DNA from: a virus
Length of the DNA: 64,000 nt
Virus record (IMG/VR): IMGVR_UViG_3300050196_000225
Span: 1-64,000 of that record
Direction: 5' to 3' (one strand)
Both the position numbers and the translations under genes were made by a program. Shown piece after piece: positions 21,319 to 43,183 of the stretch (position 1 is its first letter; the number at the start of each line of letters is the position of its first letter). Below the pieces are notes generated by a model that saw nothing but the letters and a program-made list of their open reading frames with translations, searched no databases and was not told the origin of the DNA.

Positions 21319-21334
21319 GTTATGCGCTCTCGGT

Positions 21335-22406: not shown

Positions 22407-22420
22407 GCTGCTCTCGCTTG

Positions 22421-22494
22421 CTTGTTTCGATGGGTTAATTGTGACGACCGCATGCAGGCGACGGTCGTCACCGCTGACTTATCCAGTCAGCGCG
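22421..22494 (-). promoter_or_regulatory. Compound control region: two hairpins, a palindrome copy and a -10 plus leader
   Basis: The minus strand reads CTGACTggatAAGTCAGcgGTGACGACCG-N11-CGGTCGTCACAATTaacCCATCGAAACAAGC. Confidence 0.45.
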
Positions 22495-22500
22495 CCAAGA

Positions 22501-23142: not shown

Positions 23143-23174
23143 TTCATTTACGCTCCTTTCAAAATGTTTGCTGC

Positions 23175-23199
23175 ATTTGTTTCGACGAATGAATTATTG
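23175..23199 (-). promoter_or_regulatory. -10 plus conserved-leader element
   Basis: The minus strand reads cagtcAATAATTCATTCGTCGAAACAAATgc. Confidence 0.45.
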
Positions 23200-23213
23200 A
23201 CTGCTGATGCAGG

Positions 23214-23417
23214 CTATGTGTTGGAGTTCTTCTGTTGCGCCTTGAGCTTTTCCAGCTGACGCCTGGAGTATTTGCGGGCGCTGGTCACGAGCAAATCGCT
23301 GTGCAGAAAGCCTGCGGACAAAAAGCGCGTCAGACCGTCGACGACTTCCAACAGTCCGAACTGCATGTTGTAGATGCGGCCAGCTGGATTCTTGTTTCTT
23401 TGGAAGGGGTTTTTCAT
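23214..23417 (-). CDS. hypothetical small protein (67 aa)
   Basis: Start set at ATG 23417 (MKNPFQRNKN...), 1 nt after the upstream stop. Confidence 0.45.
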   Translation of the reverse strand: MKNPFQRNKNPAGRIYNMQFGLLEVVDGLTRFLSAGFLHSDLLVTSARKYSRRQLEKLKAQQKNSNT

Positions 23418-23418
23418 T

Positions 23419-23784
23419 TCAGTTTCCCTGTTCGCACATATCCGCCATGAGAAGCAAGGACATGATTCTGTGCTCGCGTCCCGCTGGCGTTGAGTTTTTG
23501 TTCCAAAACGCATGCTCTCCACAGTCCTTAGAGCCAATTGCGTAGGCAGCCCGTGCGGAAATTTGACCATGCGCGATAACTTTTGGCGCTCTGTGCGGCT
23601 CAAATCCAGCGGAGAATTGAGCTATGTAAAAATACAAGTCGCCTATGCTGAACTTCTCGTCAGCCAAGCTAATTGCCGTTTGTATTGCTTTGCAGGTAAA
23701 GGCATGCGTGCCGTCTGCCAGTAATTCTGCCGCATGCCTGTAAATTTCAGGATTTGGGACGGCGGGCGGTTTATAGTCCTTCAT
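23419..23784 (-). CDS. hypothetical protein
   Basis: 121 aa from ATG 23784 (ATGA overlap). Confidence 0.5.
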   Translation of the reverse strand: MKDYKPPAVPNPEIYRHAAELLADGTHAFTCKAIQTAISLADEKFSIGDLYFYIAQFSAGFEPHRAPKVIAHGQISARAAYAIGSKDCGEHAFWNKNSTPAGREHRIMSLLLMADMCEQGN

Positions 23785-24089
23785 GCCATCACCTCGCATT
23801 TGTTCCAATCAACCTTATCGGGGTTGTATGACGCATAGCCACGAATCTTGGAGCGCTTGTCGCCGTGATGCTCGCGGAACTTCACTGTGCGGCCAACTTG
23901 CCCAAAAGCCAAACGCAGTTTGGTCAGGTCAGAATCCTCTTCGAGGTAGGCAAAGCCTCCCCGCATGTAGGAATAGCTGCTGATTTTTTCGGCCAGCCCG
24001 TAAGACTGGATGTCCTTCAGGCTGACTTTCATCCAGGCATGGCCAGGATCAGCGTAGACGTCAAAGGTTTTGGTTCCTGCGATTTTCAT
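23781..24089 (-). CDS. hypothetical protein
   Basis: 102-aa ORF (DPGHAWMKV...YSYMRGGFAYLEEDSD). ATGA overlap. Confidence 0.55.
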   Translation of the reverse strand: MKIAGTKTFDVYADPGHAWMKVSLKDIQSYGLAEKISSYSYMRGGFAYLEEDSDLTKLRLAFGQVGRTVKFREHHGDKRSKIRGYASYNPDKVDWNKCEVMA

Positions 24090-24313
24090 GACTTGACTCC
24101 AACTTTGGGCAGGTAATAGCGCTTGACCCAGGCGATGTCCGTCTCAGTCATTTCGCGGTCCGGCACGTCGTCCTTCTTGCCGAAGCTGGATTTGCACCAT
24201 GTCTTGATGTTGTAATACCAATAGGTATGCACAACGACCGTAAAGGACAAAACGGTCTGGCGAACTTCCAGAATGTCGCCTCTGAGTTTGAATGTAAGCA
24301 TGGTCAGTTCCAA
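24086..24313 (-). CDS. hypothetical protein
   Basis: 75-aa ORF that overlaps both neighbours. Confidence 0.5.
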   Translation of the reverse strand: MELTMLTFKLRGDILEVRQTVLSFTVVVHTYWYYNIKTWCKSSFGKKDDVPDREMTETDIAWVKRYYLPKVGVKS

Positions 24314-24558
24314 TAGTTTTCAACGTAGGGCGATGCCACGCACTTGATCAGCTGATCCATCGTGACGTCAGGCGCCGCCTCAATCAGCTCGTCCAACTGC
24401 TTGACGAACTCTTGCGCGTCAGGCCCGTCCATGTAGATCGAGAACTGATCGCCCGCCAAGTCGTGAATGACCACGGTCGGCAGCGCTCGGCACAGCTTGA
24501 TCCCGACGTCTTGGCAGCGTGACGCCATGTCAGTGATGACTTGTTCGATGCTTGGCAT
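24304..24558 (-). CDS. hypothetical protein
   Basis: 84-aa acidic ORF behind a leader element. Confidence 0.55.
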   Translation of the reverse strand: MPSIEQVITDMASRCQDVGIKLCRALPTVVIHDLAGDQFSIYMDGPDAQEFVKQLDELIEAAPDVTMDQLIKCVASPYVENYWN

Positions 24559-24572
24559 AAAAGGTGCCCTTG

Positions 24573-24634
24573 CTTGTTTCGATAGGTCAAATTGTGACCA
24601 TCAATGTGTGGATTGTATAGTCAGTTCTGACTTA
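24573..24634 (-). promoter_or_regulatory. Palindrome+TATAC element followed by a -10 plus leader element
   Basis: The minus strand reads TAAGTCAgaacTGACTATACaatccacacattgatggtcACAATTtgacctATCGAAACAAGC. Confidence 0.5.
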
Positions 24635-24822
24635 TGCCAAGCAATGCCCCTACGATCGCAAAGAGGGCAGGCCTTGCGTTTGTTTTGCAGTGCATGCTCT
24701 ACCCTTGACCGCATCTCGCCTACGCAAGGCCTGCGGGTTTTAAGGGCAGGCGATTCGGGCGCACTGAGCCCTTCAAAGTGTGATCGGGCGAGCCGTGCCC
24801 GCTCCAAGGACACGGACCTGTC

Positions 24823-24848
24823 AAAAAAGACAGGACCGAAGTCCTGTC
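24823..24848 (-). terminator. Rho-independent terminator
   Basis: The minus strand reads GACAGGAC-ttcg-GTCCTGTC-TTTTTT, about 25 nt after the stop at 24874. Confidence 0.8.
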
Positions 24849-24873
24849 AAATCGCATGGCACTGCGAGAACTC

Positions 24874-25218
24874 TTACCAGACTTCACCAGTCTGTGTCGC
24901 GGGTCTGTGAGGCGCGACCGGCCTGGTTGGTTTGACCGGCGCAATCAGGCGCTCGACCGGCTCGACATTGAGCAATCCAAGCCCGACCTTCCACTTGTGT
25001 CCTGGCACGAGCGAGTCGCCTGTCTCGCTGCAGGAGGCGGTCTTCTGGTTGATCTTGTCGATGTGAACTCGCCTGACGCCGCCTTCGTTGTCTCTGAAGG
25101 TGGCATATCGCCCGCGCATCACGCGCGTGTCCAGGCGCTGATCAAGGAGCTTGTCAACTTCCGCCTTGATCTTCTTCAAGGCGTCTGTCGATAGCAGGGC
25201 AAATTTTGAGAGGTCCAT
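24874..25218 (-). CDS. hypothetical protein (tail ...RPATQTGEVW)
   Basis: 114 aa from ATG 25218 (MDLSKFALLSTDALKKIKAEVDKLL...). The track ORF starts further upstream. Confidence 0.5.
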   Translation of the reverse strand: MDLSKFALLSTDALKKIKAEVDKLLDQRLDTRVMRGRYATFRDNEGGVRRVHIDKINQKTASCSETGDSLVPGHKWKVGLGLLNVEPVERLIAPVKPTRPVAPHRPATQTGEVW

Positions 25219-25241
25219 TGCGTTTCCATTTGACGGGTTGT

Positions 25242-25278
25242 CCAATTTCAAGCAGCCCAACAGACGGCTTGAAATTGG
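25242..25278. promoter_or_regulatory. 11-bp inverted repeat
   Basis: ccaatttcaag-N15-cttgaaattgg, in the spacer between 25308 and 25218. Confidence 0.4.
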
Positions 25279-25307
25279 GTGGAGCTTGCGCCCCACCCCT
25301 CCCCGCT

Positions 25308-26309
25308 TTACAGACCGAGGTCCGCTTTAACCTTCATCGCGATCAGGCTGTCTGCGTTCAGAACCAGGCGGCCCTTCTCGCCCGTGCTGACTGCGATCTT
25401 GAGCATCGGCAACATTGCCATCATCTGACCGGCTTGCGCGTTGCAGGTGCCCTTGGAGTAAGGCTTGCTCAGCAGCTCGGCGTGCAAGTTGCCCTTCTCG
25501 CCACTCGTGATGCAACCATCGCGCAGGAGGACTTTGAACGTGCGCTTCATGACCTCGTTCAAGGAACCGCCTGACTTCATCCAAGTGAAGAGCATGACCA
25601 CCTTCTCGGCGACCTTCTTCTGGGTGGCCGTCGCGCTGCCCGTGCCAGGACGGGTGTTAAGCAGCGCGAGCAGGTCAGCTTGCTTGGCGCGCAGGGCGTC
25701 AGGTTCCAGCTCAATGTCGGCCGTTTCCAGCAGCAGCATTTCGTCACGCTTGTCGCCCAGACGGGCGGTCAGGACGTCGCTGGCCTTGCCCGTGACGTAG
25801 GTCACACGGTGGACCTTCGGTTCTTTGGCCTTCGCGGGCTTTTCGGCCGCTTCGGTTTCGGCGGGCTGCTCGGCAGCGGGCTCAGTCACGCCGCCTGCAG
25901 CTTCGATATCTGCAAGGGCAGACGCGAGGGCAGCGTCGTCCAAGTCAGCGCCTTCGAGCCCTTCGAGCGAGACCTCGCCAACCAGGTCTTCGCTGGCGGC
26001 CAGGACCGGTGCGTCAGCGGGCACAGCAGCTTCAAGGACCGGCTCACTCAGGCCTTCCAGGTCGCTCAGGTCGGCGTCGCTCAGGTCGGCGTCGCTCAGG
26101 TCGGCGTCGCTCAGGTCGATCTCGTCAGCGACAGGCTTGTCGTCCATGTTGACCAGGTCTTCGAGCAGGCCGCCCAGTAGCGCTTCGCTGTTGGCGCTCA
26201 GGTCGATCTCGGCAGTGGTTTGCATGTTCATGGTCAGGCTTTCGGTTTGTGCAGTCTTCTTGGACTTGCGGTTGCGGGTGGGCTTGTTGGCGGTTGCGGT
26301 CATGGTCAA
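25308..26309 (-). CDS. highly acidic repeat protein
   Basis: 333 aa. The N-terminal half is Asp/Glu/Ala/Leu-rich with (DLSDA)x3-4. The C-terminal roughly 170 aa form a distinct domain. Confidence 0.65.
   Translation of the reverse strand: MTMTATANKPTRNRKSKKTAQTESLTMNMQTTAEIDLSANSEALLGGLLEDLVNMDDKPVADEIDLSDADLSDADLSDADLSDLEGLSEPVLEAAVPADAPVLAASEDLVGEVSLEGLEGADLDDAALASALADIEAAGGVTEPAAEQPAETEAAEKPAKAKEPKVHRVTYVTGKASDVLTARLGDKRDEMLLLETADIELEPDALRAKQADLLALLNTRPGTGSATATQKKVAEKVVMLFTWMKSGGSLNEVMKRTFKVLLRDGCITSGEKGNLHAELLSKPYSKGTCNAQAGQMMAMLPMLKIAVSTGEKGRLVLNADSLIAMKVKADLGL
26061..26118. repeat. 15-bp in-frame tandem repeat (about 3.9 copies)
   Basis: gtcgctcaggtcggc repeated. It encodes DLSDA units inside ORF 25308-26309. 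Confidence 0.85.
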
Positions 26310-26345
26310 ATCCTTTCAGGTGAGAATATCTGGTTAGGTTTGTCG

Positions 26346-26372
26346 CTTTGTTTTCGCGATGATTGAATTATG
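26346..26372 (-). promoter_or_regulatory. -10 plus conserved-leader element (proximal copy)
   Basis: The minus strand reads AGCTCCAATATCtgaccttCATAATTCAATCATCGCGAAAACAAAG. Confidence 0.5.
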
Positions 26373-26450
26373 AAGGTCAGATATTGGAGCTACAAGCGAT
26401 TTACTAGGCGTTTGTTTTGCTCTTTCTCTGTCTTTCTTTTCGTTCGTCTC

Positions 26451-26476
26451 GTTTGTTGCGATGTATGAACTATAAC
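26451..26476 (-). promoter_or_regulatory. -10 plus conserved-leader element (distal tandem copy)
   Basis: The minus strand reads AGCTCCAATATCgggtcgtTATAGTTCATACATCGCAACAAAC. No convincing ORF lies between it and the proximal copy. Confidence 0.45.
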
Positions 26477-26653
26477 GACCCGATATTGGAGCTGTAATGT
26501 ATTTGCCAGGAACTCGGCAAGGATATTGTCGCTATATGAGCGCGCGATGTGCGTGCGCGCGAATAACACGCTGTTGTTGGACATGGCCAGGACTTTGAAA
26601 ATTCGCCGACCGATCCTTGGCATGTCTTGGCCATCCACGGACGGGCGCAAGCC

Positions 26654-26677
26654 AAAGAAAAAGCGCCAGCAGGCGCT
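26654..26677 (-). terminator. Rho-independent terminator
   Basis: The minus strand reads AGCGCC-tgct-GGCGCT-TTTTTCTTT, 5 nt after the stop at 26682. Confidence 0.8.
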
Positions 26678-26681
26678 TGGT

Positions 26682-27020
26682 TTAGATCTTGACCTGGAAC
26701 TGATCGGCGAGTGGGTCACCATCATAGTTTCCAACCAGATCAAACTGGTCATATCCTTCCCACTTGAGCTTGGTCAGGAAGCGGTCAATCTCGCCCTGTG
26801 TGATCCAAGGGTTATCTGAGCCCTGGTCAATCAGGTAAGGTCGTCGGAAGCTGGGCGCAGGCTGAGAAGTTGCGTAAAAACCGACAGTTTGCCCATTCTC
26901 TTTGCGGGCTCGCATCACGCGACCTGCTTCGTTGGGGACTGCAGCTTCGAGCCGAAATCCAATAATCTCATCAGAGCGAGGACGACGAGTAATTTTGACA
27001 CGAACGATTGCTTTGGACAT
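26682..27020 (-). CDS. hypothetical protein
   Basis: 112 aa from ATG 27020 (MSKAIVRVKITRRPRSDE...). Confidence 0.55.
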   Translation of the reverse strand: MSKAIVRVKITRRPRSDEIIGFRLEAAVPNEAGRVMRARKENGQTVGFYATSQPAPSFRRPYLIDQGSDNPWITQGEIDRFLTKLKWEGYDQFDLVGNYDGDPLADQFQVKI

Positions 27021-27036
27021 TTGAATACCTGCAAAC

Positions 27037-27060
27037 AAATTGTTTCGACAGGTATATTTT
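27037..27060 (-). promoter_or_regulatory. -10 plus conserved-leader element
   Basis: The minus strand reads atCCAATATgtgacattgaaAATATAcctgTCGAAACAATTTg. It is preceded by GGTGAGTATATCC. Confidence 0.4.
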
Positions 27061-27143
27061 CAATGTCACATATTGGATATAGAGTGGATATACTCACCCG
27101 CCCGTAAAAGTTCCAATATTGAGTTCGCCTGACGGCTCAGGCT

Positions 27144-27608
27144 TTACCAGGCCCCGATCCCGCCATCGTCCACGTCGCCTTTAAGGTTTGCTACGGAGCT
27201 GGTCGGCAAGTCAGAGCTTGGAGGTGGCGGCGGTGGAGGTGGAGGCGCCAGCGTGTTGCCAACTTCCTCGATGTTGCCTTCTTCATCCATCGTCGAGTCT
27301 GTCCACTTGAGGATGAAGTCCTCGTAGAAGGAGGTGGCCATCTTCTCGTCAGGAAAGAATCGGCCGCTGAACGGATCTGGCACAGGCTTGCCCTGGTCGT
27401 TGTAGTTGGACAGCTCCAGGGCGAAGACTTTGTAGGTGCTGCGGAACTGCTTGTCAGCGTCAGGCACCTCGCCCTTCCACACGATGCGAATCAGGACTTT
27501 GCCATTGTCAAACTGACGCACGATCTGGTAGGAGGCGTCTTTCAGCTTGGCCAGGTAGGCATCGCGAGACATTGGCAGACCTTCACGGTCGAAGTATTTG
27601 GTCGTCAT
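27144..27608 (-). CDS. hypothetical protein (poly-Pro linker, ends ...DDGGIGAW)
   Basis: 154-aa ORF with PPPPPPPPP near the C-terminus. Confidence 0.6.
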   Translation of the reverse strand: MTTKYFDREGLPMSRDAYLAKLKDASYQIVRQFDNGKVLIRIVWKGEVPDADKQFRSTYKVFALELSNYNDQGKPVPDPFSGRFFPDEKMATSFYEDFILKWTDSTMDEEGNIEEVGNTLAPPPPPPPPPSSDLPTSSVANLKGDVDDGGIGAW

Positions 27609-27856
27609 GGCGTCGCCTCAATCCAATTGTCTTTCATGTGGAAGCTCCGATTACTGAACCGCGCGGTCACCTCGTAGCCAGGCGGAAAGACGTGCGTGAC
27701 GACGCCTACAACGCTCGTGATGCTTCGCGCCTCGTTGATAAAGATGTCCGATGGATATCCAGGCGTCACGCAGCTGCGATTGCTGCTTTTCATGCGCTCG
27801 ATGCACGCAGGCGTGATGACGACCTTATCGCCAACGTTCCAACGGTGAGGCATCAT
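27605..27856 (-). CDS. hypothetical protein
   Basis: 83 aa from ATG 27856 (TAATG overlap). ATGA overlap with the downstream gene. Confidence 0.5.
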   Translation of the reverse strand: MMPHRWNVGDKVVITPACIERMKSSNRSCVTPGYPSDIFINEARSITSVVGVVTHVFPPGYEVTARFSNRSFHMKDNWIEATP

Positions 27857-28365
27857 TATTTTTGCTCCTTCTTCAAGATGTCGGCCAACTGCCTGGCCAT
27901 GCCTGCGCACTCGTTCTCAACGAATGCCAGGGTGCGGTAGACGCCTTCATTCATGAAGGCAGAGCTTACGCCTGCGGCCGCCATTCTGGTGATGAGGCCC
28001 GGCGACATGTCGCCGTAGTGCGCACAATCAAAGCCAAGCCAATACCCCTGGCTATGACCTTGACGGTGAAAGCGCCCAGAGAAAGTCAGGCCCCCATGCA
28101 CGCGAATGCCACGCACTGCGCTGTGGTTGTAGGCGCACGCACGCACGACGCGACCACGCCAACGAGATTGAATGGTGCGCTCGGACTTTGCCAGGCGCTT
28201 GCGCAGGTTGCTGTGAGGCACACGGACGTAGCCGCACAGCGAGCCGGAATACAGGTTTCGGATGGCCATGCAGACCAAGCCGGTCGCAGGGTCGCGCCAA
28301 CGCTTGAAGTTGGGCTCATAAACAGGCACATCTGTGGCGACGTTTTGGGTTGCTGTCTCTGTCAT
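27856..28365 (-). CDS. hypothetical protein (VHGGLTF...GFDCAHYGD family)
   Basis: 169-aa ORF. The conserved-looking His/Asp motifs suggest an enzyme, but I cannot name the family. Confidence 0.55.
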   Translation of the reverse strand: MTETATQNVATDVPVYEPNFKRWRDPATGLVCMAIRNLYSGSLCGYVRVPHSNLRKRLAKSERTIQSRWRGRVVRACAYNHSAVRGIRVHGGLTFSGRFHRQGHSQGYWLGFDCAHYGDMSPGLITRMAAAGVSSAFMNEGVYRTLAFVENECAGMARQLADILKKEQK

Positions 28366-28607
28366 GGTGTCGGGTTGTTTGAGTCGATATCTGAATTGTG
28401 CGACCCTGAAGCAGGCGCTGGTTTGGCTTTCAGGTAGGCGTCGTAACCTTCCTTCTTGAACAGGATGCGGTTGGCCGTGTAGGGGCTGATCCCGCAGATC
28501 TTGGCGACGCCCTCGATGCCGGCATCAGTTTCCAGGTAGCGCCACCAGACTGCGTAAGTCAGCTCCTCGCGGGTGCTGAAGCGCCCGGTGGTTGGCTTGC
28601 GGCTCAC
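28362..28607 (-). CDS. HTH-domain protein
   Basis: 81 aa from GTG 28607 (GTGA overlap). AGIEGVAKICGISPYTANRIL looks like an HTH. Confidence 0.45.
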   Translation of the reverse strand: MSRKPTTGRFSTREELTYAVWWRYLETDAGIEGVAKICGISPYTANRILFKKEGYDAYLKAKPAPASGSHNSDIDSNNPTP

Positions 28608-28834
28608 CGACGGGCCACCCAGCCGGTCGGCTCGTCGTCCATGTCCTGCAGCTTGGCCAGCTCCACCAGGGCGCGCTCCCTGTCCTCGAAGCACCAGCGG
28701 TAGGCCCAGCCGATGTGGCTCAGGCCCGTGCAGATGGCGCGGGTGAACATCAGTTCGATGGTGCCGGCCCAGGTGCCATCTGCCAACTGCCGGACATTCC
28801 GGTAGCCCTGGGCCTCGAAGTATTCCTTGCTCAT
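28604..28834 (-). CDS. hypothetical protein
   Basis: 76-aa ORF. ATGA overlap with the upstream gene. Confidence 0.5.
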   Translation of the reverse strand: MSKEYFEAQGYRNVRQLADGTWAGTIELMFTRAICTGLSHIGWAYRWCFEDRERALVELAKLQDMDDEPTGWVARR

Positions 28835-28983
28835 GCGTCCTCGTCGAAATAAAAGAAGGTGACATTCATGGTCATTTGGATGTGCTTGACTGCCTTCATG
28901 AAGTCACTCTCGATTTCGCCTTGAATTTCCAGGCGCAGAAAGGCATTGTCCACAATACCGAACACGGCCATTTTCTTGGTCAT
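28831..28983 (-). CDS. hypothetical small protein (50 aa)
   Basis: Hand-translated as MTKKMAVFGIVDNAFLRLEIQGEIESDFMKAVKHIQMTMNVTFFYFDEDA. ATGA overlaps at both ends. Confidence 0.4.
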   Translation of the reverse strand: MTKKMAVFGIVDNAFLRLEIQGEIESDFMKAVKHIQMTMNVTFFYFDEDA

Positions 28984-29294
28984 GGCTCAATCTCCTCGAT
29001 CAGAACGGAGCTGCAGTTCGGACACTCGTCGCCAGCCGTGTTCCCGCGCCAGGCGCAGGCCCGGCACTTGAACGAGTCCAGCACGTCGCTGTGCAGCATC
29101 CAGGGGTGCGGTTGGCTCTCGCTGGCCAGGCACCACAGCGTCGGGTCATCGAGCTGGACCAGGATGCGGTCATCAGGGCGGCCTGTCTCGATCGCGCGCG
29201 AGGCGACCACATCATTGATTTTTAAGATCGCCTCAAAGCCCAGGATGGTTCCCCAGCCGAACTTCTTGAGCAGAACGCGTTGGCCGACGATCAT
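28980..29294 (-). CDS. protein with a C-terminal zinc ribbon
   Basis: 104 aa. CRACAW...CPNCSS at the C-terminus. Confidence 0.5.
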   Translation of the reverse strand: MIVGQRVLLKKFGWGTILGFEAILKINDVVASRAIETGRPDDRILVQLDDPTLWCLASESQPHPWMLHSDVLDSFKCRACAWRGNTAGDECPNCSSVLIEEIEP

Positions 29295-29296
29295 GG

Positions 29297-29740
29297 TCAG
29301 TCCTTCAGCGCCGACAGCGCAACTGGTTCAAAGTGCAGGTCCAACTCGACACCCGCCTCGATCAGCTCTTGGATGCCGATGTAGCCGCGCTCTGGATAGT
29401 TGGGCAGAATCTCAACCTGACCATACGCCTGAATCTGATCGACGCTGGGCGTCCAGTCGCCATCTTCACCCTTGTCCTTCTCGGTGATGTAGGCCGTCAC
29501 CGGCCCGCCGAAATACTTCAGGTAGGCGATCGGGTCTTTCACTCCGTCCTGGCCATAGGTCTGAGGCATCTCCTCGATGCACTTTTTGATGACCTTCAGG
29601 CGCTCGACAAAGAAGTCACCCTCTTCGCCTTTGATCAGCTCCTTGAGCGCAAAGCGCTGCGCGACGGGAATCCACTTCTCGAAGAAGCCCCCATTGGATA
29701 GCGCTTGCTCGATCTTGAAAAAGTCTGTGGCGTTGACCAT
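29297..29740 (-). CDS. DUF2958-like protein
   Basis: 147 aa. AYITEKD...AYGQVEILPNYPERGYIGIQELIEAGVELDLHFEP resembles the DUF2958 pattern as I recall it. Confidence 0.4.
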   Translation of the reverse strand: MVNATDFFKIEQALSNGGFFEKWIPVAQRFALKELIKGEEGDFFVERLKVIKKCIEEMPQTYGQDGVKDPIAYLKYFGGPVTAYITEKDKGEDGDWTPSVDQIQAYGQVEILPNYPERGYIGIQELIEAGVELDLHFEPVALSALKD

Positions 29741-29749
29741 GTCGGTGCC

Positions 29750-29776
29750 CTTGTTTGTTGCGATGATTGAATTGTG
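29750..29776 (-). promoter_or_regulatory. -10 plus conserved-leader element
   Basis: The minus strand reads gggcttcACAATTCAATCATCGCAACAAACAAGggcaccgacATG. Confidence 0.5.
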
Positions 29777-29817
29777 AAGCCCGGCCGCAGGAAGTCAAAG
29801 CGACTTGCCAGGCGAAC

Positions 29818-30453
29818 TCACCAGCGCCTGATCTGCAGCTGTGTCTCGACCTCTTCAACCAGCGTCAAGTCGCCAATGGGGTCTGTCATGACCAGCTGAC
29901 CATTGGCCCGCTCCATGAAGTTCTTCATGTGCAGGTCCAGGAAGTTGCCACCGTTGTAGCTGCAGTATCGGGCCAGGTCTTTGAAGGCGTTGCGCACGCT
30001 GCCTGGCAGGTCTTTGCAGGCGACCATCTTGCGCGCCTCTTCCTCTGCCAGAAACTCTTCGGGAACGTCCGCGTAGGTCAGCCTGCGATCTTTGTGCCGG
30101 ATGATGATGGACCTGGCCAGCTTACATGCCTGGCTGCCGGCCCTGAGCTTGCTCAGACGCTCGACCTCATACAAGTAGATTGGCCAGCGCCTTCCGAGCA
30201 CGCTGATCTCGCCAATGTCCTGATGGTCATCATGCACGCGAGTGAAATGGCGATGCGTCACACGGGTGACCTTGTCGTTGGCCATCCAGTAGCTCGGGCC
30301 ATCCACAGTCAACTTCAAGGCGGTGTTCGGGCGCGTGCCCTCAAAGACGGCCGAGAAGTTGCCTCGACCAAGCAGCTTTTTGCCCTGGAGAAGTGGGTGA
30401 CGAAGTGCCAAACGAGCACCTGGCTCGTCAAAGCGAAATGCTTTGGCGGACAT
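29818..30453 (-). CDS. protein-kinase-like (ePK/APH-fold) phosphotransferase
   Basis: 211 aa from ATG 30453 (GAAAGG RBS). Gly-loop LGRGNFSAVF, Lys in TALKL, catalytic-loop-like LDLHMKNFM and DFG-like VMTDPIG. Confidence 0.5.
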   Translation of the reverse strand: MSAKAFRFDEPGARLALRHPLLQGKKLLGRGNFSAVFEGTRPNTALKLTVDGPSYWMANDKVTRVTHRHFTRVHDDHQDIGEISVLGRRWPIYLYEVERLSKLRAGSQACKLARSIIIRHKDRRLTYADVPEEFLAEEEARKMVACKDLPGSVRNAFKDLARYCSYNGGNFLDLHMKNFMERANGQLVMTDPIGDLTLVEEVETQLQIRRW

Positions 30454-35597: not shown

Positions 35598-35639
35598 ACG
35601 GTTTATAGCTCAATCACTAATGACTGAAGTATAAACCGT
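35598..35639. promoter_or_regulatory. 10-bp inverted repeat enclosing a palindrome-family variant
   Basis: acggtttata / tataaaccgt flank gctcaatcactaatgactgaag. It lies between NAMPT and the L12-like gene. Confidence 0.5.
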
Positions 35640-35673
35640 CATGCTTGGATTGCAAGCACAACGGTCAGGACTA

Positions 35674-37077
35674 TCAGAGGTAGCCTGCTGCCTTCGCAGC
35701 GCTTTCGCGGACTTCTGCAAGCGTCGTCCAGTTCGCACCGACGCCGTTCATGTAAACAACCTGCATGGCGTCACCCGTGCCCGTGTCGGACCAGCGGCGG
35801 CCTTCGGACTCGCGCATCGTCATCAGCTGGCCCGCGTCGCGCACCGTGATCAGGCGGCCCTTGAGCGAAGCCTTGCCAGGGTCGGTGATCGGGTCTTTGA
35901 AAACGTCACGCCACTCGCCGTTGACCTTAGCTGCGCAGCACTTCATGGCAAAGCCATAGTTGTCGCGATTGACTTGCTGCAGCAGCCCGCCACCCATGCC
36001 GAAGGCGATGTTGTCGGCAGAGAAGCCATGCTCCTTCAACTTCTGCAAGATGTCGTGAATGGAGTCAGGCCCATCAATGCCGTCGCCCTGGATCAGGCGC
36101 ACATGGTTCAGGACTTTGAAGCCCTTGCTGTTGAGCGTGCAGCCAAAGCGATCGGCCAGGAGGGTGGCGATGCGGGGCAGCACTTCCAGAGGGTCACCAC
36201 TGTCAGGGCGGATCACCACGGTTGCGCCGCTGTCGATCACTTCCTGGCGCAATTCTTGACCCCACAGCGCATCACAGGCATGGTCAATGTCGTAGCTGTC
36301 GGAGACAACAGCCAGCACCTTGCCAGGTTTGGCGAATTGCTTAAGCATGTTGCGATAGGCGGCAACCTCACCCTCGCGACCCCAGGCTGTGATGGTGCTG
36401 TGCTCCGCTGCAGGGATCGAGAAGCCCGCCATGAACTCGCCGTAATACTGACGGGCGGCCACGATGGCTTCGATCGTGTCAGAACCGAGGAAGTTGACCA
36501 AGTGTGCCATCCCGCCCATTTCAGCGGACTCGCCCGATGAAGTGCCGCGGGCGCCGAAGTCGTGCAGCTTGAAGGGCAGACCGCTCATGTCGTCGGCAGT
36601 CTCTTCGAGAAACTCAGCAATCACAGACTTGCACTGCAAGCTCTTGGTGGCAACCGTGGTGGGATACCACACGCGCAGCAGCAGCGTTTCCAGCCAGCCG
36701 CCCACCCAGGCCAGGTCCGGGTCATTAGGCGTCTCGACGATGGCCAGTGCCACACCTTGAGGCACGATCGAGCCTTCGGGCAGCGCCTTGATGGTCACGG
36801 GCATGTAGCCGCCGTGAACTTCCACGATCTTGAGCCAGCCATCGGTATTGAAGGGCACGCCATAGTTACCGTAGAACTCAGACGCTTCACGCACCTGCTC
36901 GGCCGTCACGGGCTTGAGCAGGTATTTCTGGATGATGGCTTGCAGACCAAACCACAGGACTTCACCACCCTTGCGCGCCACGATGTAGCTTTGCTTGGCC
37001 GTGGTGTCAGGTGGATCTTGCAGGTAGTGGCTGGGCTTGTAGCCGTCGGTGGCGTAGAGGATGTTTTTGTCGGTCAT
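35674..37077 (-). CDS. nadV: nicotinamide phosphoribosyltransferase (NAMPT/NadV)
   Basis: 467 aa from ATG 37077 (GAAAGGAAC RBS). N-terminal YATDGYKPSHY, and NAMPT-like in overall length and pattern. Confidence 0.85.
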   Translation of the reverse strand: MTDKNILYATDGYKPSHYLQDPPDTTAKQSYIVARKGGEVLWFGLQAIIQKYLLKPVTAEQVREASEFYGNYGVPFNTDGWLKIVEVHGGYMPVTIKALPEGSIVPQGVALAIVETPNDPDLAWVGGWLETLLLRVWYPTTVATKSLQCKSVIAEFLEETADDMSGLPFKLHDFGARGTSSGESAEMGGMAHLVNFLGSDTIEAIVAARQYYGEFMAGFSIPAAEHSTITAWGREGEVAAYRNMLKQFAKPGKVLAVVSDSYDIDHACDALWGQELRQEVIDSGATVVIRPDSGDPLEVLPRIATLLADRFGCTLNSKGFKVLNHVRLIQGDGIDGPDSIHDILQKLKEHGFSADNIAFGMGGGLLQQVNRDNYGFAMKCCAAKVNGEWRDVFKDPITDPGKASLKGRLITVRDAGQLMTMRESEGRRWSDTGTGDAMQVVYMNGVGANWTTLAEVRESAAKAAGYL

Positions 37078-37253
37078 GGTGTGGGTTCCTTTCGGTTGTC
37101 GATGGACAGGTGCTCGGTGGTTTTCAGCCACCTGCGCACGGTTGAAGCGCTTTTTCCAGCGGATCTGGCAATCTCAGCGACGGACTGCCCAGAGTTGAAG
37201 CAGTTCCTGGCCGCCAAGAGAGCGCAAACTCGTTTGAAGCTCAGCGACGCCAT
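37074..37253 (-). CDS. small HTH protein (59 aa)
   Basis: Hand-translated as MASLSFKRVCALLAARNCFNSGQSVAEIARSAGKSASTVRRWLKTTEHLSIDNRKEPTP. It has a classic HTH and an ATGA overlap with nadV. Confidence 0.5.
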   Translation of the reverse strand: MASLSFKRVCALLAARNCFNSGQSVAEIARSAGKSASTVRRWLKTTEHLSIDNRKEPTP

Positions 37254-37256
37254 AGC

Positions 37257-38330
37257 TCAGGCGGGCTGGTTGTTGAGCATCTGCTGGACGAGATGCCAGT
37301 GGTCCGAGAAGAACTCGGGCTTGAGCTTGTCGAGGTCGGCGATGGCGACCCAATCAGCCCATTCGGCGTCATCGCCAGCGACGGGCTTGATCTTTTCTTC
37401 GGCCTTCGCGATGTAGTAGCCAAAGACGTGCGACACCGTGCGAACGCCAAGCGAGCGGCCGGGCGCGTCAGCAAGGAAGTAACCGAACGGGTTGGCTTTG
37501 AACTCGCGCCACTCGACGTTGATGCCGGTCTCTTCGATGCCTTCGCGAACGGCGCATTGACGCAAGCGCTCGCCCTTGTTCAAGAACCCGCCAGGCAGGG
37601 CATACGTGCCATTGCCGATCTTGCCCTTGCGGCGAATGAGCAGAATGTGCGTGCGACTTTGGATGAAGAGGTCGGCGGCCAGGCTGGGTTGCCAGCCGTA
37701 AAGGCGGGTGATGTCGTTCTCGGACTGCTTGAAGCGCTCCTGCACTGCGCTCATTTCTTCGCACAGGCGATTCACGCGCTCGTGGTCTGTCTCCAAAACG
37801 ATGGAGTAGACCTTCGGGTCGAGCATGTTGATCCAGGCGTCGTTTTCGCCAGACGGGTTCTCGGCGAAGAGAGCCTTGCGAATGTCGGTGGCGTCAGGGC
37901 GAACCTTGCCGACATCAGCGCTCATGCCAGGCGGCGAGTCGATGACCAGCGCCGGGATTTCATGCAGCGGCCAATGGAACAGGTTCAGGTAGTAGCTGGA
38001 CTCGTCTTTGTTGTGCCCGACCAGAATGATTTCCGAGTTCTTGTCGGCGTAGAGACTTACCATGCCCTGCACGCTGGCCGCCCACTCATGATCGTCGTAT
38101 GGAGCGTCCAACACCGACGTGATGTAGCACTTCCAACCCAGCTCCGGCATGGCGTGCATGATCATTTCCTTGCGCTCAGCGACGGTCCAGGGGTCTTTGC
38201 AGGTGCGGGCGCAACCCGTGTCGCCAATGACGATGATCACCTTGTCAGCAACCTTGGCCGCTTCGTTGATCACGTGCAGGTGGCCGTTGTGAAAGGGCTG
38301 GAAGCGCCCGATGACGATGGCTGTTTTCAT
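37257..38330 (-). CDS. bifunctional NMN adenylyltransferase / Nudix hydrolase (NadM-Nudix, NatV-like)
   Basis: N-terminal IGRFQPFHNGH nucleotidyltransferase motif. C-terminal Nudix box GGFLNKGERLRQCAVREGIEETG. Confidence 0.85.
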   Translation of the reverse strand: MKTAIVIGRFQPFHNGHLHVINEAAKVADKVIIVIGDTGCARTCKDPWTVAERKEMIMHAMPELGWKCYITSVLDAPYDDHEWAASVQGMVSLYADKNSEIILVGHNKDESSYYLNLFHWPLHEIPALVIDSPPGMSADVGKVRPDATDIRKALFAENPSGENDAWINMLDPKVYSIVLETDHERVNRLCEEMSAVQERFKQSENDITRLYGWQPSLAADLFIQSRTHILLIRRKGKIGNGTYALPGGFLNKGERLRQCAVREGIEETGINVEWREFKANPFGYFLADAPGRSLGVRTVSHVFGYYIAKAEEKIKPVAGDDAEWADWVAIADLDKLKPEFFSDHWHLVQQMLNNQPA

Positions 38331-38504
38331 GGTTTCTCCTTAATGGCCAAAGCTGGCCGAAAATTGAAGAGAGACTGCCGGCGCATCAGCAGCGTTGTCG
38401 TTTGAGCAAGTCTTATGGAAGAAATGTTGGTTGCGGCGCTGACCCACGAACCATCGACTGCCTCTCAGAGCTTCGCCCGTGGTCACGACGACCAGAGGCG
38501 AAAG

Positions 38505-38530
38505 TCTGAAAGGCCTGGCCGAAGCCAGGC
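38505..38530 (-). terminator. Stem-loop terminator
   Basis: The minus strand reads GCCTGGC-ttcg-GCCAGGC-CTTTCAG, 8 nt after the stop at 38538. Confidence 0.5.
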
Positions 38531-38537
38531 ACTTCAA

Positions 38538-38888: not shown

Positions 38889-39317
38889 TCAGGCGGCTTC
38901 GCGCAGGCAGCGATTGGCCAACAAGTCGGTGATGGCTTCATTGACGGCGCCCTGGGCGTCGCGCGCCAGGTTGCGGCTGATGGCGTTCTCGATCAGGTCC
39001 ACACGAATGCCTTCGTTGGCCGCAATCACGAATGCGCCGATGACCACAGCTGCGATCTTTTCAGCGAACTCTTCGGACTCGACATTGGGGCCATTGAGCA
39101 CGGCATTGCCCAGCTCGCCAGTAGAGATGGACAGAGCGACAGCGGACGCGGCCGGCTCGGCATTGACCAGCTTGGAGAATTTGTGCGTTGCCAGCGCAAC
39201 GTCGGCCAGCGTGCGCACCTCAGCAAACTTGACGACGGCGCTGCCAGTGACAGTCACCGTTGGGCGAAAAGCGGGATTGAGGTTGGAATCGGGCGTGCAG
39301 CCATTGGTGTTGTTCAT
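38889..39317 (-). CDS. hypothetical protein
   Basis: 142-aa ORF, 30 nt downstream of a palindrome+TATACT element. Confidence 0.55.
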   Translation of the reverse strand: MNNTNGCTPDSNLNPAFRPTVTVTGSAVVKFAEVRTLADVALATHKFSKLVNAEPAASAVALSISTGELGNAVLNGPNVESEEFAEKIAAVVIGAFVIAANEGIRVDLIENAISRNLARDAQGAVNEAITDLLANRCLREAA

Positions 39318-39346
39318 GTGGTTAACCTTTCGTTTGGTTGTCTAAG

Positions 39347-39365
39347 TATAGTCAGTGATGACTTA
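39347..39365 (-). promoter_or_regulatory. Palindrome+TATACT element
   Basis: The minus strand reads TTAAGTCAtcacTGACTATACTTAGACAAcc. 26 nt are identical to the copy at 48423-48448. Confidence 0.55.
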
Positions 39366-39416: not shown

Positions 39417-39638
39417 TCACGAACCTGCCAGCTCGTTGATGGCGTTGAAGACGGTGCGCACAGTGCCGCGGTCCAGCTCTTTAGCCTGCTCGGACAGCTG
39501 CTCGTAGGGCACCATCAGTTCTTCGCCGGACTCCAGCTTGCGCGAGGTCACGCCAGCGGCCAACTTCATGTCGATCCAGTTTTGGTGGACCTTGGCTGAA
39601 ACGAGTTCGATATCGGGGAGATTCACAGCTCCACCCAT
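39417..39638 (-). CDS. RyR-domain-like protein
   Basis: About 73 aa. LVSAKVHQNWIDMKLAAGV...LMVPYEQLSEQAKELDRGTV fits the RyR-domain pattern. The start is ATG 39638 or GTG 39626. Confidence 0.45.
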   Translation of the reverse strand: MGGAVNLPDIELVSAKVHQNWIDMKLAAGVTSRKLESGEELMVPYEQLSEQAKELDRGTVRTVFNAINELAGS

Positions 39639-40060: not shown

Positions 40061-40146
40061 TGTTTTCTCCAGATGGGCAAACGCCCGATGTGTGAACTGT
40101 AGAAACCGAAAGCAGGCACCGCTCAGGCACCTGCTTTCAATTCCAG

Positions 40147-40767
40147 TCAGTGCATGACAGCGCCTTCGCGCTCGCCCTCTGCCCGCTTGATCACTCGGGC
40201 ACCGGCAGCGTCAAGGGCTGCAACGCGGTCGTCCAAGTTGATCAGGTAACGCGGGACGTAGTAGTGGGGAACCTTCAGACGCTCGTCCACGCTCAGCCCC
40301 AGGATGATCGAGTTCAGGTGCTCGATGTAAGCCTGGTTCATGGCGGCCTTGCCTTCTTCGGCAACCAGGGCAATGCCAGGCTGGACGACCAGCAGCATGC
40401 CAAAGTGCTTGTTCAGGCTTTCAAAGCATTCGGCCACATATTTCGCGAAGCGCGCCTGGTCTTCTTCCTTGACCGCAGTGCCAATGGCTTCGGCGAGCGT
40501 GTAGCCCATGAAGTCCAAAGGCGTGCGGTCAGTGATGGCGTCAACGCAGGCATGCTTCTCGTAGATGGCATTCAAGCGCTTCAAGATCTCTTCCTGGATA
40601 TTCAGTCTGGTCGAGAAGTCATAGGTGACTGCCGGGTCAAAACCCATGTCCTTGAAGATGGCGCTCACCGACGTTTCCACGAAGGTGAAGTCACGTCTGC
40701 TTGCGAACGTCTTGGCCAGCGTTGTCTTGCCTACCCGATGGGCACCTGCGAGTCCAATCACTTGCAT
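40147..40767 (-). CDS. P-loop kinase/ATPase of the AAA_28 (NadR-like) type
   Basis: Walker A GLAGAHRVGKTT. DRTPLDFMGY and the later LLVVQPG segment fit the AAA_28 pattern. The substrate is unknown; it could be a nucleoside or nucleotide kinase. Confidence 0.5.
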   Translation of the reverse strand: MQVIGLAGAHRVGKTTLAKTFASRRDFTFVETSVSAIFKDMGFDPAVTYDFSTRLNIQEEILKRLNAIYEKHACVDAITDRTPLDFMGYTLAEAIGTAVKEEDQARFAKYVAECFESLNKHFGMLLVVQPGIALVAEEGKAAMNQAYIEHLNSIILGLSVDERLKVPHYYVPRYLINLDDRVAALDAAGARVIKRAEGEREGAVMH

Positions 40768-41405
40768 TCGCCCAGGGAGCCACGGGGCGTCACCAGGGCT
40801 TCTTGCTTGTCGGCGCGGGCTTGAGCTTGCGCGTCCGAGAAGCTGCCTTCAGCGTAGCGCGCCTTGTTTTTGGCGTTGCCCAGGTAGAGCTTTTCGATGT
40901 TGGCTTCGAGCGTGGTCTGACGCTCAATGTCCAAAAGACGGCGCACGCCTTCCAGATGCAGTTCCAGCTTGGTCAGCTGACCGACCAGAGCCTCGCGGTC
41001 CAGAGCCTTGTTGTAGACCACGAACTTCTTGACAGTGTCCAGCACGTCGCAAGCTGCGATCTGCGCTACGCTGGCTTCTTCGCCAGCGTAGTCAAAGTGA
41101 GGCACGCTGCCAACCAGAATCACGCCGGTCGTTTCGCCACGATCGATGCCAACGCGCTGGCGCAGACCTTCCAGGTAGAACTCCAGGTCGCCCAACTCCT
41201 CGATCACGTTGACGAGGTCGATGTCCTGATATTTCAGGGCCGACTCAACGAAGGCCGCCAACAGCTCGCCAGCCTCGCCAGCAATACCTGTTGCCATGTG
41301 CCAGGCGTCGGCCTTCTCGGGCGTCAAGCTGGCCAGGATGTCTGCGCCAGGCTTGACAAGCGCCTTGACCATCAGCTCATAGTTGATTTCGGATGCGCGG
41401 CTCAT
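40758..41405 (-). CDS. MazG-like nucleotide pyrophosphohydrolase
   Basis: 215 aa. IAGEAGELL...IEELGDLEFYLEG is a MazG-type EExxE/ExxD helix pair. Confidence 0.6.
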   Translation of the reverse strand: MSRASEINYELMVKALVKPGADILASLTPEKADAWHMATGIAGEAGELLAAFVESALKYQDIDLVNVIEELGDLEFYLEGLRQRVGIDRGETTGVILVGSVPHFDYAGEEASVAQIAACDVLDTVKKFVVYNKALDREALVGQLTKLELHLEGVRRLLDIERQTTLEANIEKLYLGNAKNKARYAEGSFSDAQAQARADKQEALVTPRGSLGECK

Positions 41406-41753: not shown

Positions 41754-42683
41754 TTACTTTTTGAAGGACAGTTCGAGGAGCTTGCGGTGCTGAATCCAGC
41801 CGACAAGGTTGCCGTGCAGACCAGGCTTGTTCCAGTCCTCGATCACGTCAAAGTCGCCACTGTCATTGCCGATGTGATAGTTGACGATGGTGTCGGGCGT
41901 CGCTTGATGCTCGAATGGCGAGGCATGGATGGGGCGCGAGCCGGCCAGACGGTCGCACAGGTCCAGCTCCTCTTGCAAGGTGGCCTTGTTGCCATCGTGC
42001 TTGAGGTAGCTCACGCGGCAGCAGCGGGCGGCCGAAATTTTGCGCAACAGGTCGTTGCGCATTTCGTCAGTCCAAATGCACAACCCGTCAGGTCCACCCC
42101 GCAGGTGAACTTGAACGGCGGCGCGGTCCTCGTCGGTGACGTAGGGCAGGTGCCACTGGTCTGGCTCCAGAATGTCGGGGATTGACGCATCCATCGCCTG
42201 CTTCATCAGCACGGCCAGGTGACGAATCTCCGGCTGAGCGTCCTTGTGGTCACGCAGCCCAAAGAAGTTGTCCCACTCGGTCGCCGTGACGATCACGCTG
42301 ATCCACTGGAAGGGCTCCAGGATACGGTTGGCCACCTGCTTGTGAGCGCCGAGGGCAGCCATCTCTTCGGCGTTATTGGCGGCCTGCCAGGCTGCTCGGC
42401 ACCAGGCCGAGATTGCCAGGTCGCGCTCAAGGGCGTCCAGGCTCACGTCGGCCTGCATGCCGGGCTGGTTCTTGCCCCAATGGATCGGCATGGCGGGGTC
42501 GTTGCGCACCTGCTCGATCATCTTTGCCACCGGGATGGCGCGGGACGAACTGGCGTTGCGGCTGAACACCCGATGCGTCATGAACTCGGCATGGACGAAG
42601 CGGGGGTAGCGCAGCTGCATCGTGGCGATGCGCTTGCCAGTGTTCGAGCTGATCGAGTCAGCAATGATTTTGGCTTGAAACAT
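41754..42683 (-). CDS. thyX: flavin-dependent thymidylate synthase
   Basis: 309 aa with the ThyX signature MTHRVFSRNASSSRA (the RHRxxSxxxxSxR type). Confidence 0.8.
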   Translation of the reverse strand: MFQAKIIADSISSNTGKRIATMQLRYPRFVHAEFMTHRVFSRNASSSRAIPVAKMIEQVRNDPAMPIHWGKNQPGMQADVSLDALERDLAISAWCRAAWQAANNAEEMAALGAHKQVANRILEPFQWISVIVTATEWDNFFGLRDHKDAQPEIRHLAVLMKQAMDASIPDILEPDQWHLPYVTDEDRAAVQVHLRGGPDGLCIWTDEMRNDLLRKISAARCCRVSYLKHDGNKATLQEELDLCDRLAGSRPIHASPFEHQATPDTIVNYHIGNDSGDFDVIEDWNKPGLHGNLVGWIQHRKLLELSFKK

Positions 42684-43183
42684 CAGAATGACTCCGAGTG
42701 AGAGGCGTGCTTGTCCCAGTCGGCCAGGTATTTCTGGGCCAAAGCGGGGTCACGAATGACCAACACGTTTTCAGCGTTGGCTTTTTCAGCCGCGTTGCTG
42801 AAGTTGAAACTGCCGGTGATGACCGTCTTGCCGTCGATCAAGATCACCTTGTTGTGTTGGATCGGATGCTTGCGGTCCATCAGCGCGTGCGTCGCCGCAG
42901 CAACTTTGGCAGCGCAGCAGTATTGGTCAATGGTGGACTTGGATTGACTTTTGTCCACGATCACGTTCAGCGTCACGCCGCGTGCTTTGGCCGCAATCAG
43001 GGCTTCAGCGATCGGCTTGGATGTCAGCTGATAGGTCATGACACGAATGTCGGTTTTGGCAGCGTCGATCTCGCGCACCAGGGCAGCAGTTGCGCCGCCA
43101 TTGGGGCTGAAATACACGTCGATGGGCGCGGCGTTAACGATGCCGAAGACGGTCAGCAGCGCCAACGTGAAGAACTTTTTCAT
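42683..43183 (-). CDS. secreted PLD-family (Nuc-like) endonuclease/phosphodiesterase
   Basis: Sec signal peptide MKKFFTLALLTVFGIVNA/AP. Single HKD motif HNKVILIDGKTVITGSFNFSNAAEKANAEN. Confidence 0.8.
   Translation of the reverse strand: MKKFFTLALLTVFGIVNAAPIDVYFSPNGGATAALVREIDAAKTDIRVMTYQLTSKPIAEALIAAKARGVTLNVIVDKSQSKSTIDQYCCAAKVAAATHALMDRKHPIQHNKVILIDGKTVITGSFNFSNAAEKANAENVLVIRDPALAQKYLADWDKHASHSESF

Follow-up and report, generated by a model that had tools for sequence, protein, structure and literature searches.

Does a pair of neighbouring genes in an uncultivated phage encode a pathway for rebuilding NAD+, and do the small helix-turn-helix (HTH) gene lying between them and the P-loop kinase gene nearby belong to the same pathway? 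The question is raised by positions 1 to 64,000 of IMG/VR virus record IMGVR_UViG_3300050196_000225 (the whole 64,000-nucleotide stretch analysed, referred to here as the window). In an initial annotation, made from the letters alone, one gene of the pair was read as encoding nicotinamide phosphoribosyltransferase (Nampt) and the other as encoding an NMN (nicotinamide mononucleotide) adenylyltransferase (NMNAT) fused to a Nudix hydrolase, and the two were likened to NadV and NatV of phage KVP40, which form NAD+ reconstitution pathway 2 (NARP2). Our analysis indicates that positions 38330-35674 on the minus strand quite probably hold a NARP2-type NAD+ reconstitution cassette, with the HTH gene apparently inserted into it, and that the kinase gene seems to belong to the thymidylate/deoxynucleoside triphosphate (dNTP) block. 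Metagenome contigs from JGI and Logan, the longest of 112,005 bp, contain identical DNA, and the window is therefore a portion of a phage of about 112 kb. Positions of the features are collected in Table 1.

The nadV-like gene was confirmed as encoding Nampt by a score of 575 bits against the NCBIfam model PRK09198 (cut-off 405), and further matches were obtained to Pfam NAPRTase (E = 8e-60) and NAMPT_N (E = 5e-18) and to PHROG 448 (E = 2e-150). Its top solved homologue is PDB 7yqo (E = 2e-148, 498 bits), which, going by structures described in the literature, we take for the Xanthomonas Nampt; human NAMPT follows (about 1e-115 and 390 bits), and the weakest phosphoribosyltransferase chains matched in the PDB search reach about 219 bits. 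The start codon is correctly assigned to the ATG at 37077, since relatives begin with the same MT(D/S)KNIL and have the same ribosome-binding site ahead of it. Three long plus-strand open reading frames (ORFs) lie antisense to nadV and nadM, and are tentatively read as shadow ORFs of high-GC DNA, not genes.

The nadM/natV-like gene, which has the Shine-Dalgarno sequence AAGGAG 6 nt ahead of its ATG, likewise proved to have the fused architecture first described for it. The N-terminal NMNAT domain (Pfam CTP_transf_like, E = 1e-11) has its HxGH motif in GRFQPFHNGH at residues 8-17, and the C-terminal domain (Pfam NUDIX, E = 2e-16) contains GGFLNKGERLRQCAVREGIEETG. Set against the Nudix box GX5EX7REUXEEXGU, the latter reads G-FLNKG-E-RLRQCAV-RE-G-I-EE-T-G-I, where the sole deviation is Gly at the first U; the glutamates of the box are preserved, as is the HxGH motif. 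The protein aligns end to end with the bifunctional NadM-Nudix of Synechocystis, 2qjo (E = 7.6e-47). The Nudix domain is a probable ADP-ribose pyrophosphatase.

The two genes occur on the same strand of the same phage, nadM being 179 nt upstream of nadV, and this adjacency, together with the family thresholds and the solved-structure homologues, upholds the assignment to NARP2 of the KVP40 NadV-NatV type. NAPRTase, CTP_transf_like, NUDIX and AAA_28, the families proposed in the initial annotation for profile searches, were all matched, the last in the kinase discussed below. By homology, Nampt would convert nicotinamide and phosphoribosyl pyrophosphate (PRPP) to NMN, the NadM domain would use NMN and ATP to make NAD+, and the fused Nudix domain would probably split ADP-ribose into AMP and ribose-5-phosphate. 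The ribose-5-phosphate could re-enter PRPP synthesis via host Prs, which would recycle the second product of the NADase effectors, and the phage would thus be able to restore NAD+ out of what the host's NADase defence effectors leave behind.

The KVP40 pair was defined as NARP2 by Osterman et al. (2024; bioRxiv 10.1101/2024.02.11.579819), who reported that it raises NAD+ and abolishes type I Thoeris and DSR2 defence, that NARP2 is present in about 1.1% of sequenced phages, and that NARP1 and NARP2 are mutually exclusive, no phage with both pathways being known. From these KVP40 experiments we infer the enzyme activities and the counter-defence role of the window pair. Iyer et al. found that all phages bearing NadM also carry NadV. 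In our tblastn searches, 466 of 50,697 GenBank phage records contained NadM-Nudix homologues, and Nampt/Namat-like genes were found in 2,039 phage records.

The window pair and the KVP40 pair (Lee et al., 2017; Osterman et al., 2024) consist of the same two enzymes, and have in common their domain architecture (NAMPT_N plus NAPRTase, and HIGH-type NMNAT plus Nudix), the arrangement as an operon of adjacent genes, and the predicted chemistry, from nicotinamide, PRPP and ATP to NAD+. They differ in that the window phage is unrelated to KVP40, being a high-GC phage of about 112 kb with a DnaE-type polymerase, that the proteins are strongly diverged, and that the window has the 59-aa HTH gene between the enzymes and a structured 207-nt leader upstream of them. 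Full-length homology also extends to the bacterial NadM-Nudix proteins (Synechocystis slr0787, 2qjo, and Francisella 2qjt; E = 8e-47, with the HxGH motif and Nudix box kept) and to bacterial NadV (Xanthomonas Nampt, 7yqo; E = 2e-148), whereas the window genes are phage-encoded and their NadM falls below the NCBIfam equivalog cut-offs. A megablast search of GenBank phages with the NARP2 module gave zero matches, that is, no near-identical phage, and a scan of IMG/VR for close NadM relatives returned none; the closest cultured-phage matches are 55% identical for Nampt and 35% identical for NadM. The other copies of the phage (n = 4) are 100% identical across 4.6 kb. The pair is thus an already-described system, and is new only as a diverged example of NARP2.

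We compared the window with relatives L005-L010 and L014-L016 and with Pseudomonas phage nickie, in each case over the fetched stretch only, which measures 11-21 kb in L005, L014, L015 and L016 and 40 kb in nickie. In all the NARP2-bearing relatives compared, nadM and nadV are directly adjacent (NadM 42-76% identical). In L007 (NadM 76%, spacer 11 nt), a short contig, the pair is preceded by a partial 45-aa ORF and followed by a gene resembling that of ribosomal protein L7/L12 (the L12-like gene) and then an RNase T homologue. L008 (54%, 14 nt) has an RNA ligase gene upstream and the L12-like gene downstream, with RNase T farther on; L009/L010 (42%, 10 nt) have an RNA ligase gene upstream (L009) and RNase T farther on downstream, without the L12-like gene. 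L005, L014, L015 and L016 retain the backbone, which runs from ribonucleotide reductase (RNR), ThyX and the kinase to the L12-like gene and RNase T, and neither Nampt nor NadM was found within their 11-21 kb; nor was either found within the 40 kb of phage nickie, where the backbone is also kept. The ORFs of 145, 142 and 97 aa in the interval between the kinase gene and nadM are backbone genes, because they too are found in relatives without NARP2. The NARP2 cassette is therefore a variable insert, while the backbone around it is syntenic.

Some smaller features of this neighbourhood may be recorded here. The L12-like gene lies directly 3' of nadV; its 159-aa product shows a weak match to ribosomal L7/L12, and the gene is kept with or without NARP2 (L005, L007, L008 and L014-L016). 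Between the kinase and the NARP2 genes are a 73-aa ORF with a weak RyR-domain match and the 142-aa ORF, which has a weak second MazG-like match. The fetched stretch of L014, which is without NARP2, carries a Tad2-like anti-Thoeris gene, a tRNA-Ile gene and an ARAGORN tmRNA-like call (1906-2187, 7094-7475 in L014); the Tad2-like gene suggests that different relatives may bear different counter-defence cargo.

Table 1. Positions of the features discussed, numbered from the first letter of the window.
Feature	Position	Strand	Basis or context
nadV-like Nampt gene, 467 aa	35674-37077	-	NCBIfam, Pfam, PDB, PHROG
nadM/natV-like gene, 357-aa protein	37257-38330	-	Pfam, PDB 2qjo, PHROG 395
HTH ORF, 59 aa	37074-37253	-	Pfam HTH_23, 27.8 bits (cut-off 24.6)
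Structured intergenic leader, 207 nt	38331-38537	-	between 97-aa ORF and nadM
Long leader hairpin	arms 38460-38484 and 38490-38514		-38.5 kcal/mol; abuts small GC hairpin
Small GC hairpin of leader	38507-38536		7-bp GC core, UUCG loop
Nearest upstream promoter-like element, TAAGTCATCACTGACTATACT	39345-39363	-	ahead of 142-aa and 97-aa ORFs
Promoter-like site, TTGCAA-16-TATACT then TCAGTCAT	35628-35655	-	19 nt past nadV stop, ahead of L12-like gene
Promoter-like element, copies on minus strand	58921-58902, 57897-57879, 48446-48428, 45496-45477, 39363-39345, 30523-30504, 24632-24612, 3807-3788	-	
Promoter-like element, copy on plus strand	10607-10626	+	
Second promoter-like type, common TATACTTCAGTCAT	41741-41736, 35633-35628 (minus strand)		after ThyX and before MazG-kinase; after nadV
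AAA_28 P-loop nucleoside/nucleotide-kinase-fold protein	40147-40767	-	Pfam AAA_28, 29.8 bits (cut-off 27)
MazG-like gene	40758-41405		10-nt overlap with kinase gene
Hairpin directly after kinase stop	40095-40154	-	13-bp perfect stem, -32 kcal/mol, partial U-tract
L12-like gene, 159 aa	35117-35596	-	weak ribosomal L7/L12-like match
142-aa ORF	38889-39317	-	weak MazG-like match, E = 0.0025
73-aa ORF	39417-39638	-	weak RyR-domain match
ORFs antisense to nadV/nadM, 284-370 aa	35641-36540, 36562-37416, 37293-38405	+	read as shadow ORFs
PLD-family (Nuc-like) nuclease gene	42683-43183	-	between RNR genes and ThyX
DnaE-type Pol III alpha gene, 1150 aa	58938-62390	-	
Sigma-70-like factor gene	63082-63798	-	sigma-70 region-2 protein
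15-nt tandem repeat (GTCGCTCAGGTCGGC)	26061-26118		within pentapeptide-repeat ORF 25308-26309
14-nt tandem array	14954-15027		AT-richer intergenic DNA
27-72-nt repeat families (TTGTTGCGATGAATGAATT...), examples	18007-18033, 21330-21356, 26343-26408, 29747-29812		between small ORFs

Direct reading of the sequence places the 59-aa HTH ORF between the two enzyme genes, where it had first been noticed: it begins 3 nt past the nadM stop, and its own stop overlaps the nadV ATG as ATGA. The ORF has no Shine-Dalgarno sequence of its own and, given this and its start so close to the nadM stop, its translation is probably coupled to that of nadM. The ancestral ribosome-binding region of nadV, AAGGAACCCACACC, forms the final six codons of the ORF, AAG GAA CCC ACA CCA TGA; the L008 spacer is TGA-AAGGAACCCACACC-ATG, and its ribosome-binding site is identical to that of the window. 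This identity, together with spacers of 10-14 nt in L007, L008 and L009 as against 179 nt in the window, points to an insertion of about 165 nt in this lineage, placed after the nadM stop and ahead of the ribosome-binding site of nadV.

The gene callers used on the source contigs missed the HTH ORF. A single close homologue was found in 5.8 billion proteins, namely P0241, which is 65% identical and 83 aa long, with an extra CxxC...CxxC tail. Over 51 aligned codons the two differ at 0.245 of nonsynonymous sites (pN) and 0.84 of synonymous sites (pS, saturated), so that the family is under purifying selection and the gene is real. An exhaustive HMMER scan gave 185 representatives of the family, many of them standalone proteins of 42-75 aa (typically 45-65), with the motif F..(I/V)C..LAAR.CY..GQSV..IAKSA..S.ST(I/V)(R/Y)RWLK. 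That the ORF arose by chance or is a piece of some longer gene was rejected on this typical length of 45-65 aa and on a pN far below pS. We also looked for the footprint of a mobile element: there is no flanking homology to the P0241 locus, and no obvious target duplication was seen on inspection of the junction by eye. The AlphaFold2 (AF2) model consists of three helices and a disordered tail, the latter being read-through into the ribosome-binding site. Foldseek matched this model to generic DNA-binding domains only, none with E < 0.1, and the PHROG matches are generic as well; relatives in the databases are named only "transposase-like" or "hypothetical", and nothing related to NAD is found among the contig neighbours of P0241. 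The initial annotation had presented the HTH gene as a feature specific to the window, and it is indeed a real, selected gene and a recent, lineage-specific insertion; it is not, however, an integral or conserved part of NARP2, being absent from L007, L008 and L009, the three closest NARP2-bearing relatives. The protein may regulate something, with no specific tie to NARP2.

A terminator of the module's own and a leader of roughly 175 nt had also been proposed upstream of nadM. A structured leader is indeed present, but the intergenic region is 207 nt long. Its predicted fold of -87.6 kcal/mol compares with -69.5 ± 4.4 for shuffled sequences (z = -4.13), and none of 200 shuffles was as stable. 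The hairpins are real and form a tandem pair, the long one being the strongest 60-nt hairpin within 30-46 kb; but no U-tract accompanies them and the terminator scan made no call there, so that they are not a canonical intrinsic terminator. An Rfam search (E ≤ 1) of 34-42 kb found no RNA family, NAD+ riboswitches included. L008 and L009 also have hairpins ahead of nadM, of unrelated sequence (the leader alignment shows no real homology), and L008 has a tRNA-Ala(CGC) gene (1702-1777 in L008) between the RNA ligase gene and nadM. The leader hairpins may terminate, attenuate or stabilise transcripts.

Transcription signals were found on either side of the cassette, and no TATACT-type promoter-like element lies inside the leader. 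A promoter-like element, TAAGTCA-N4/5-TGA(C/G)(C)TATACT (TAAGTCA-N4/5-TGACTATACT), occurs nine times in the window, with eight copies on the coding strand, and stands upstream of genes including those for the RNR small subunit, DnaE and the single-stranded-DNA-binding protein (SSB). The element is an AGTCA..TGACT palindrome overlapping a -10-like TATACT, and may represent a phage promoter combined with an operator. The copy nearest upstream of nadM is a candidate for the point at which transcription into the NARP2 genes begins, and the TTGCAA-16-TATACT site just past the nadV stop marks the downstream boundary of the unit. Since the phage encodes a sigma-70 region-2 protein, some of its promoters may be unlike host sigma-70 sites.

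The AAA_28 match of the kinase covers only profile positions 4-110 of 164, and its surroundings are those of nucleotide metabolism. The gene is the last of a ThyX-MazG-kinase unit, in which the MazG-kinase genes are preceded by a promoter-like site of the TATACT type (41741) and the kinase stop is directly followed by the second-strongest hairpin of the region, likely the terminator of the unit; 1.8 kb and two strong hairpins separate the kinase from nadM. The order RNR, ThyX, MazG-like, kinase is common to the window, L014 and L016; L015 retains it, but there the ORF ahead of the kinase is unmatched by the MazG-like query. In L005/L006 a dUTPase gene precedes and overlaps the kinase gene, and in phage nickie ThyA, dihydrofolate reductase and one ORF precede a kinase annotated as "putative thymidylate kinase". 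The kinases of L005, L014, L015 and L016 are 59-63% identical to that of the window. Proteins named "putative thymidylate kinase" or P-loop NTPase in Nickievirus, RHEph10-like and Stenotrophomonas BUCTxx99-like phages are 26-36% identical and occupy the same place, after the thymidylate synthase and dUTPase/MazG genes; the thymidylate-kinase naming is itself a putative annotation. The family as a whole gave 288 matches, mostly unnamed, many on phage-sized contigs of 100-113 kb.

Searches with the kinase itself gave little that distinguishes its substrate. NCBIfam gave no family, Pfam gave no match to Thymidylate_kin or dNK, and PHROG 2107, "thymidylate kinase", was matched weakly (E = 1.5e-5). 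With hhalign the probability was 4% for E. coli NadR, over 38 columns around the P-loop only, and 1% for E. coli Tmk, again over the P-loop only. tblastn with NadR did not match the kinase ORF, and matched only the HxGH region of NadM; sequence and profile searches of the PDB returned only P-loop noise. Foldseek with the AF2 model (pLDDT, its per-residue confidence, 92) gave a tie between deoxyadenosine kinase, NadR 8x7f and many thymidylate kinases, at template-modelling (TM) scores of 0.6-0.66 and 13-16% identity; the nucleoside/nucleotide-kinase fold is non-discriminating here, since NadR matches equally. Invariant in the family are a P-loop GxHRxGKT and a DR motif, which resemble type I thymidylate kinases, a likeness that we take only as a lead.

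How firmly the overall interpretation should be held depends on several results that weigh against it and on what else could explain the genes. NadM-Nudix scores 198 bits against its top NCBIfam model, NF003791, far under the equivalog cut-off of 409, and its second NMNAT motif is DATDIR instead of ISSTxxR; it is a diverged member of its family, which keeps the domain architecture and aligns with 2qjo over the full length but falls short of equivalog-level similarity. The searches for further partner genes covered the 64-kb window of a genome of about 112 kb: no Prs/Adps partner was found (best tblastn match with E. coli Prs, E = 0.76; no Prs domain among the 46 ORFs scanned against Pfam), and no PnuC-like ORF. 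In the Foldseek search with the kinase, NadR 8x7f ranked second (E = 1.9e-6). A different phosphoribosyltransferase, Namat of the NARP1 type, which uses ADP-ribose pyrophosphate (ADPR-PP), is homologous to Nampt and has a catalytic core in common with it, yet to read the nadV-like protein in that way seems to us extremely improbable: both the PRK09198 equivalog score and the 498 bits against the Xanthomonas Nampt place it in the Nampt/NadV clade, the adjacent partner is an Nmnat and not Adps, and the two pathways are not known together in any phage. A general auxiliary metabolic role for the pair, in which it would raise NAD+ for replication whether or not a defence is active and would not have been selected for counter-defence, we regard as possible though on balance unlikely. 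NARP2 does raise NAD+ even without a defence system, the KVP40 pathway was first described as plain salvage, and the cassette is located in a region of replication and nucleotide metabolism (RNR, ThyX, MazG, RNase T). The KVP40 pair nevertheless abolishes Thoeris and DSR2 defence on transplantation, and patchy occurrence among close relatives is more typical of accessory arms-race genes than of core metabolism; the two roles are not mutually exclusive.

The same weighing applies to the genes around the pair. The initial annotation had raised the idea that the AAA_28 protein is a nicotinamide-riboside kinase, giving the NadM domain a second route into NMN. The AAA_28 family contains the NadR kinase domain, and Foldseek listed 1lw7 as well as 8x7f. 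NadR-type enzymes do occur in phages: NARP3 of phage Bas30 (PMC13464706), a phage NAD+ rebuilding route made up of PnuC and an NadR-like enzyme with an AAA_28-type kinase domain, is the only known precedent for the idea. There, however, the kinase is fused to NMNAT and paired with the PnuC importer, whereas the window kinase is a standalone protein in the dNTP block whose similarity to NadR is confined to the P-loop. The proposed link to NAD metabolism was not supported: the kinase keeps its position in five relatives without NARP2 in the fetched stretches (L005, L014, L015, L016 and nickie), stands about 15 kb from NARP2 in the Rhizobium phages that have both, and is predicted to be transcribed separately from the cassette; NadR models do not match it, no PnuC occurs in the window, and deoxynucleoside and thymidylate kinases fit its fold equally. 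We consider a nicotinamide-riboside kinase very unlikely; a kinase of (deoxy)nucleosides or nucleotides, forming part of the thymidylate/dNTP block, is the most likely identity. In the Kongming defence a phage deoxynucleotide kinase is reported to trigger NAD+ depletion (PMC12774641); that this kinase, if it acts on deoxynucleoside monophosphates, might be a Kongming liability offset by NARP2 is pure speculation. As for the HTH protein, a dedicated regulator of the cassette, for instance one that limits PRPP drain by autoregulation or binds the leader or the palindrome, would suit its tight packing and probable translational coupling between the enzymes, the signs that it is real and selected, the toxicity in E. 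coli and metabolic cost of unregulated KVP40 NARP2, and an AGTCA-N4/5-TGACT palindrome fit for a dimeric HTH protein. We think it unlikely: the closest NARP2 relatives work without the protein, P0241, the one close homologue, is found, like the rest of the family, in unrelated contexts without NAD genes, it has no sensor domain, and the site may merely tolerate insertion. Distinctly doubtful, too, is a regulated NARP2 unit in this lineage, in which the HTH protein, the tandem-hairpin leader or both would tune nadM-nadV expression, by autoregulation at the AGTCA..TGACT elements or by leader attenuation.

The window as a whole is GC-rich (about 58-60%) and has nearly all its genes on the minus strand. 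Profile matches identify a SU10-like capsid protein and a terminase; replication and recombination genes for SbcCD, RecA, a FEN-type exonuclease, a gp32-like SSB and a DnaE-type polymerase; and ParB-like proteins, a class I RNR, a PLD-type nuclease, ThyX and MazG-like proteins. Compared with its counterparts in Rhizobium RHEph10-like, Stenotrophomonas BUCTxx99-like and Pseudomonas Nickievirus phages, the polymerase shows about 40-43% identity; it has a uracil-DNA-glycosylase-superfamily domain at its C-terminus (residues ~1000-1099). The N-terminus of the PLD-family nuclease is signal-peptide-like (MKKFFTLALLTVFGIVNAAP). Besides the short tandem repeats listed in Table 1, repeat families of 27-72 nt occupy the lower-GC part of the window (~14000-30000), and may be regulatory repeats of an early region.

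Two cautions follow for the reading of such loci: a generic AAA_28 match near NAD genes does not amount to an NadR-type kinase, and small genuine genes between enzymes can escape gene callers. What is known of NAD+ counter-defence is unchanged by the finding. In this clade of uncultivated high-GC phages of about 110 kb with a DnaE-type polymerase, NARP2 behaves as a mobile accessory cassette in a conserved backbone, and such accessory behaviour is what is expected of an arms-race gene.

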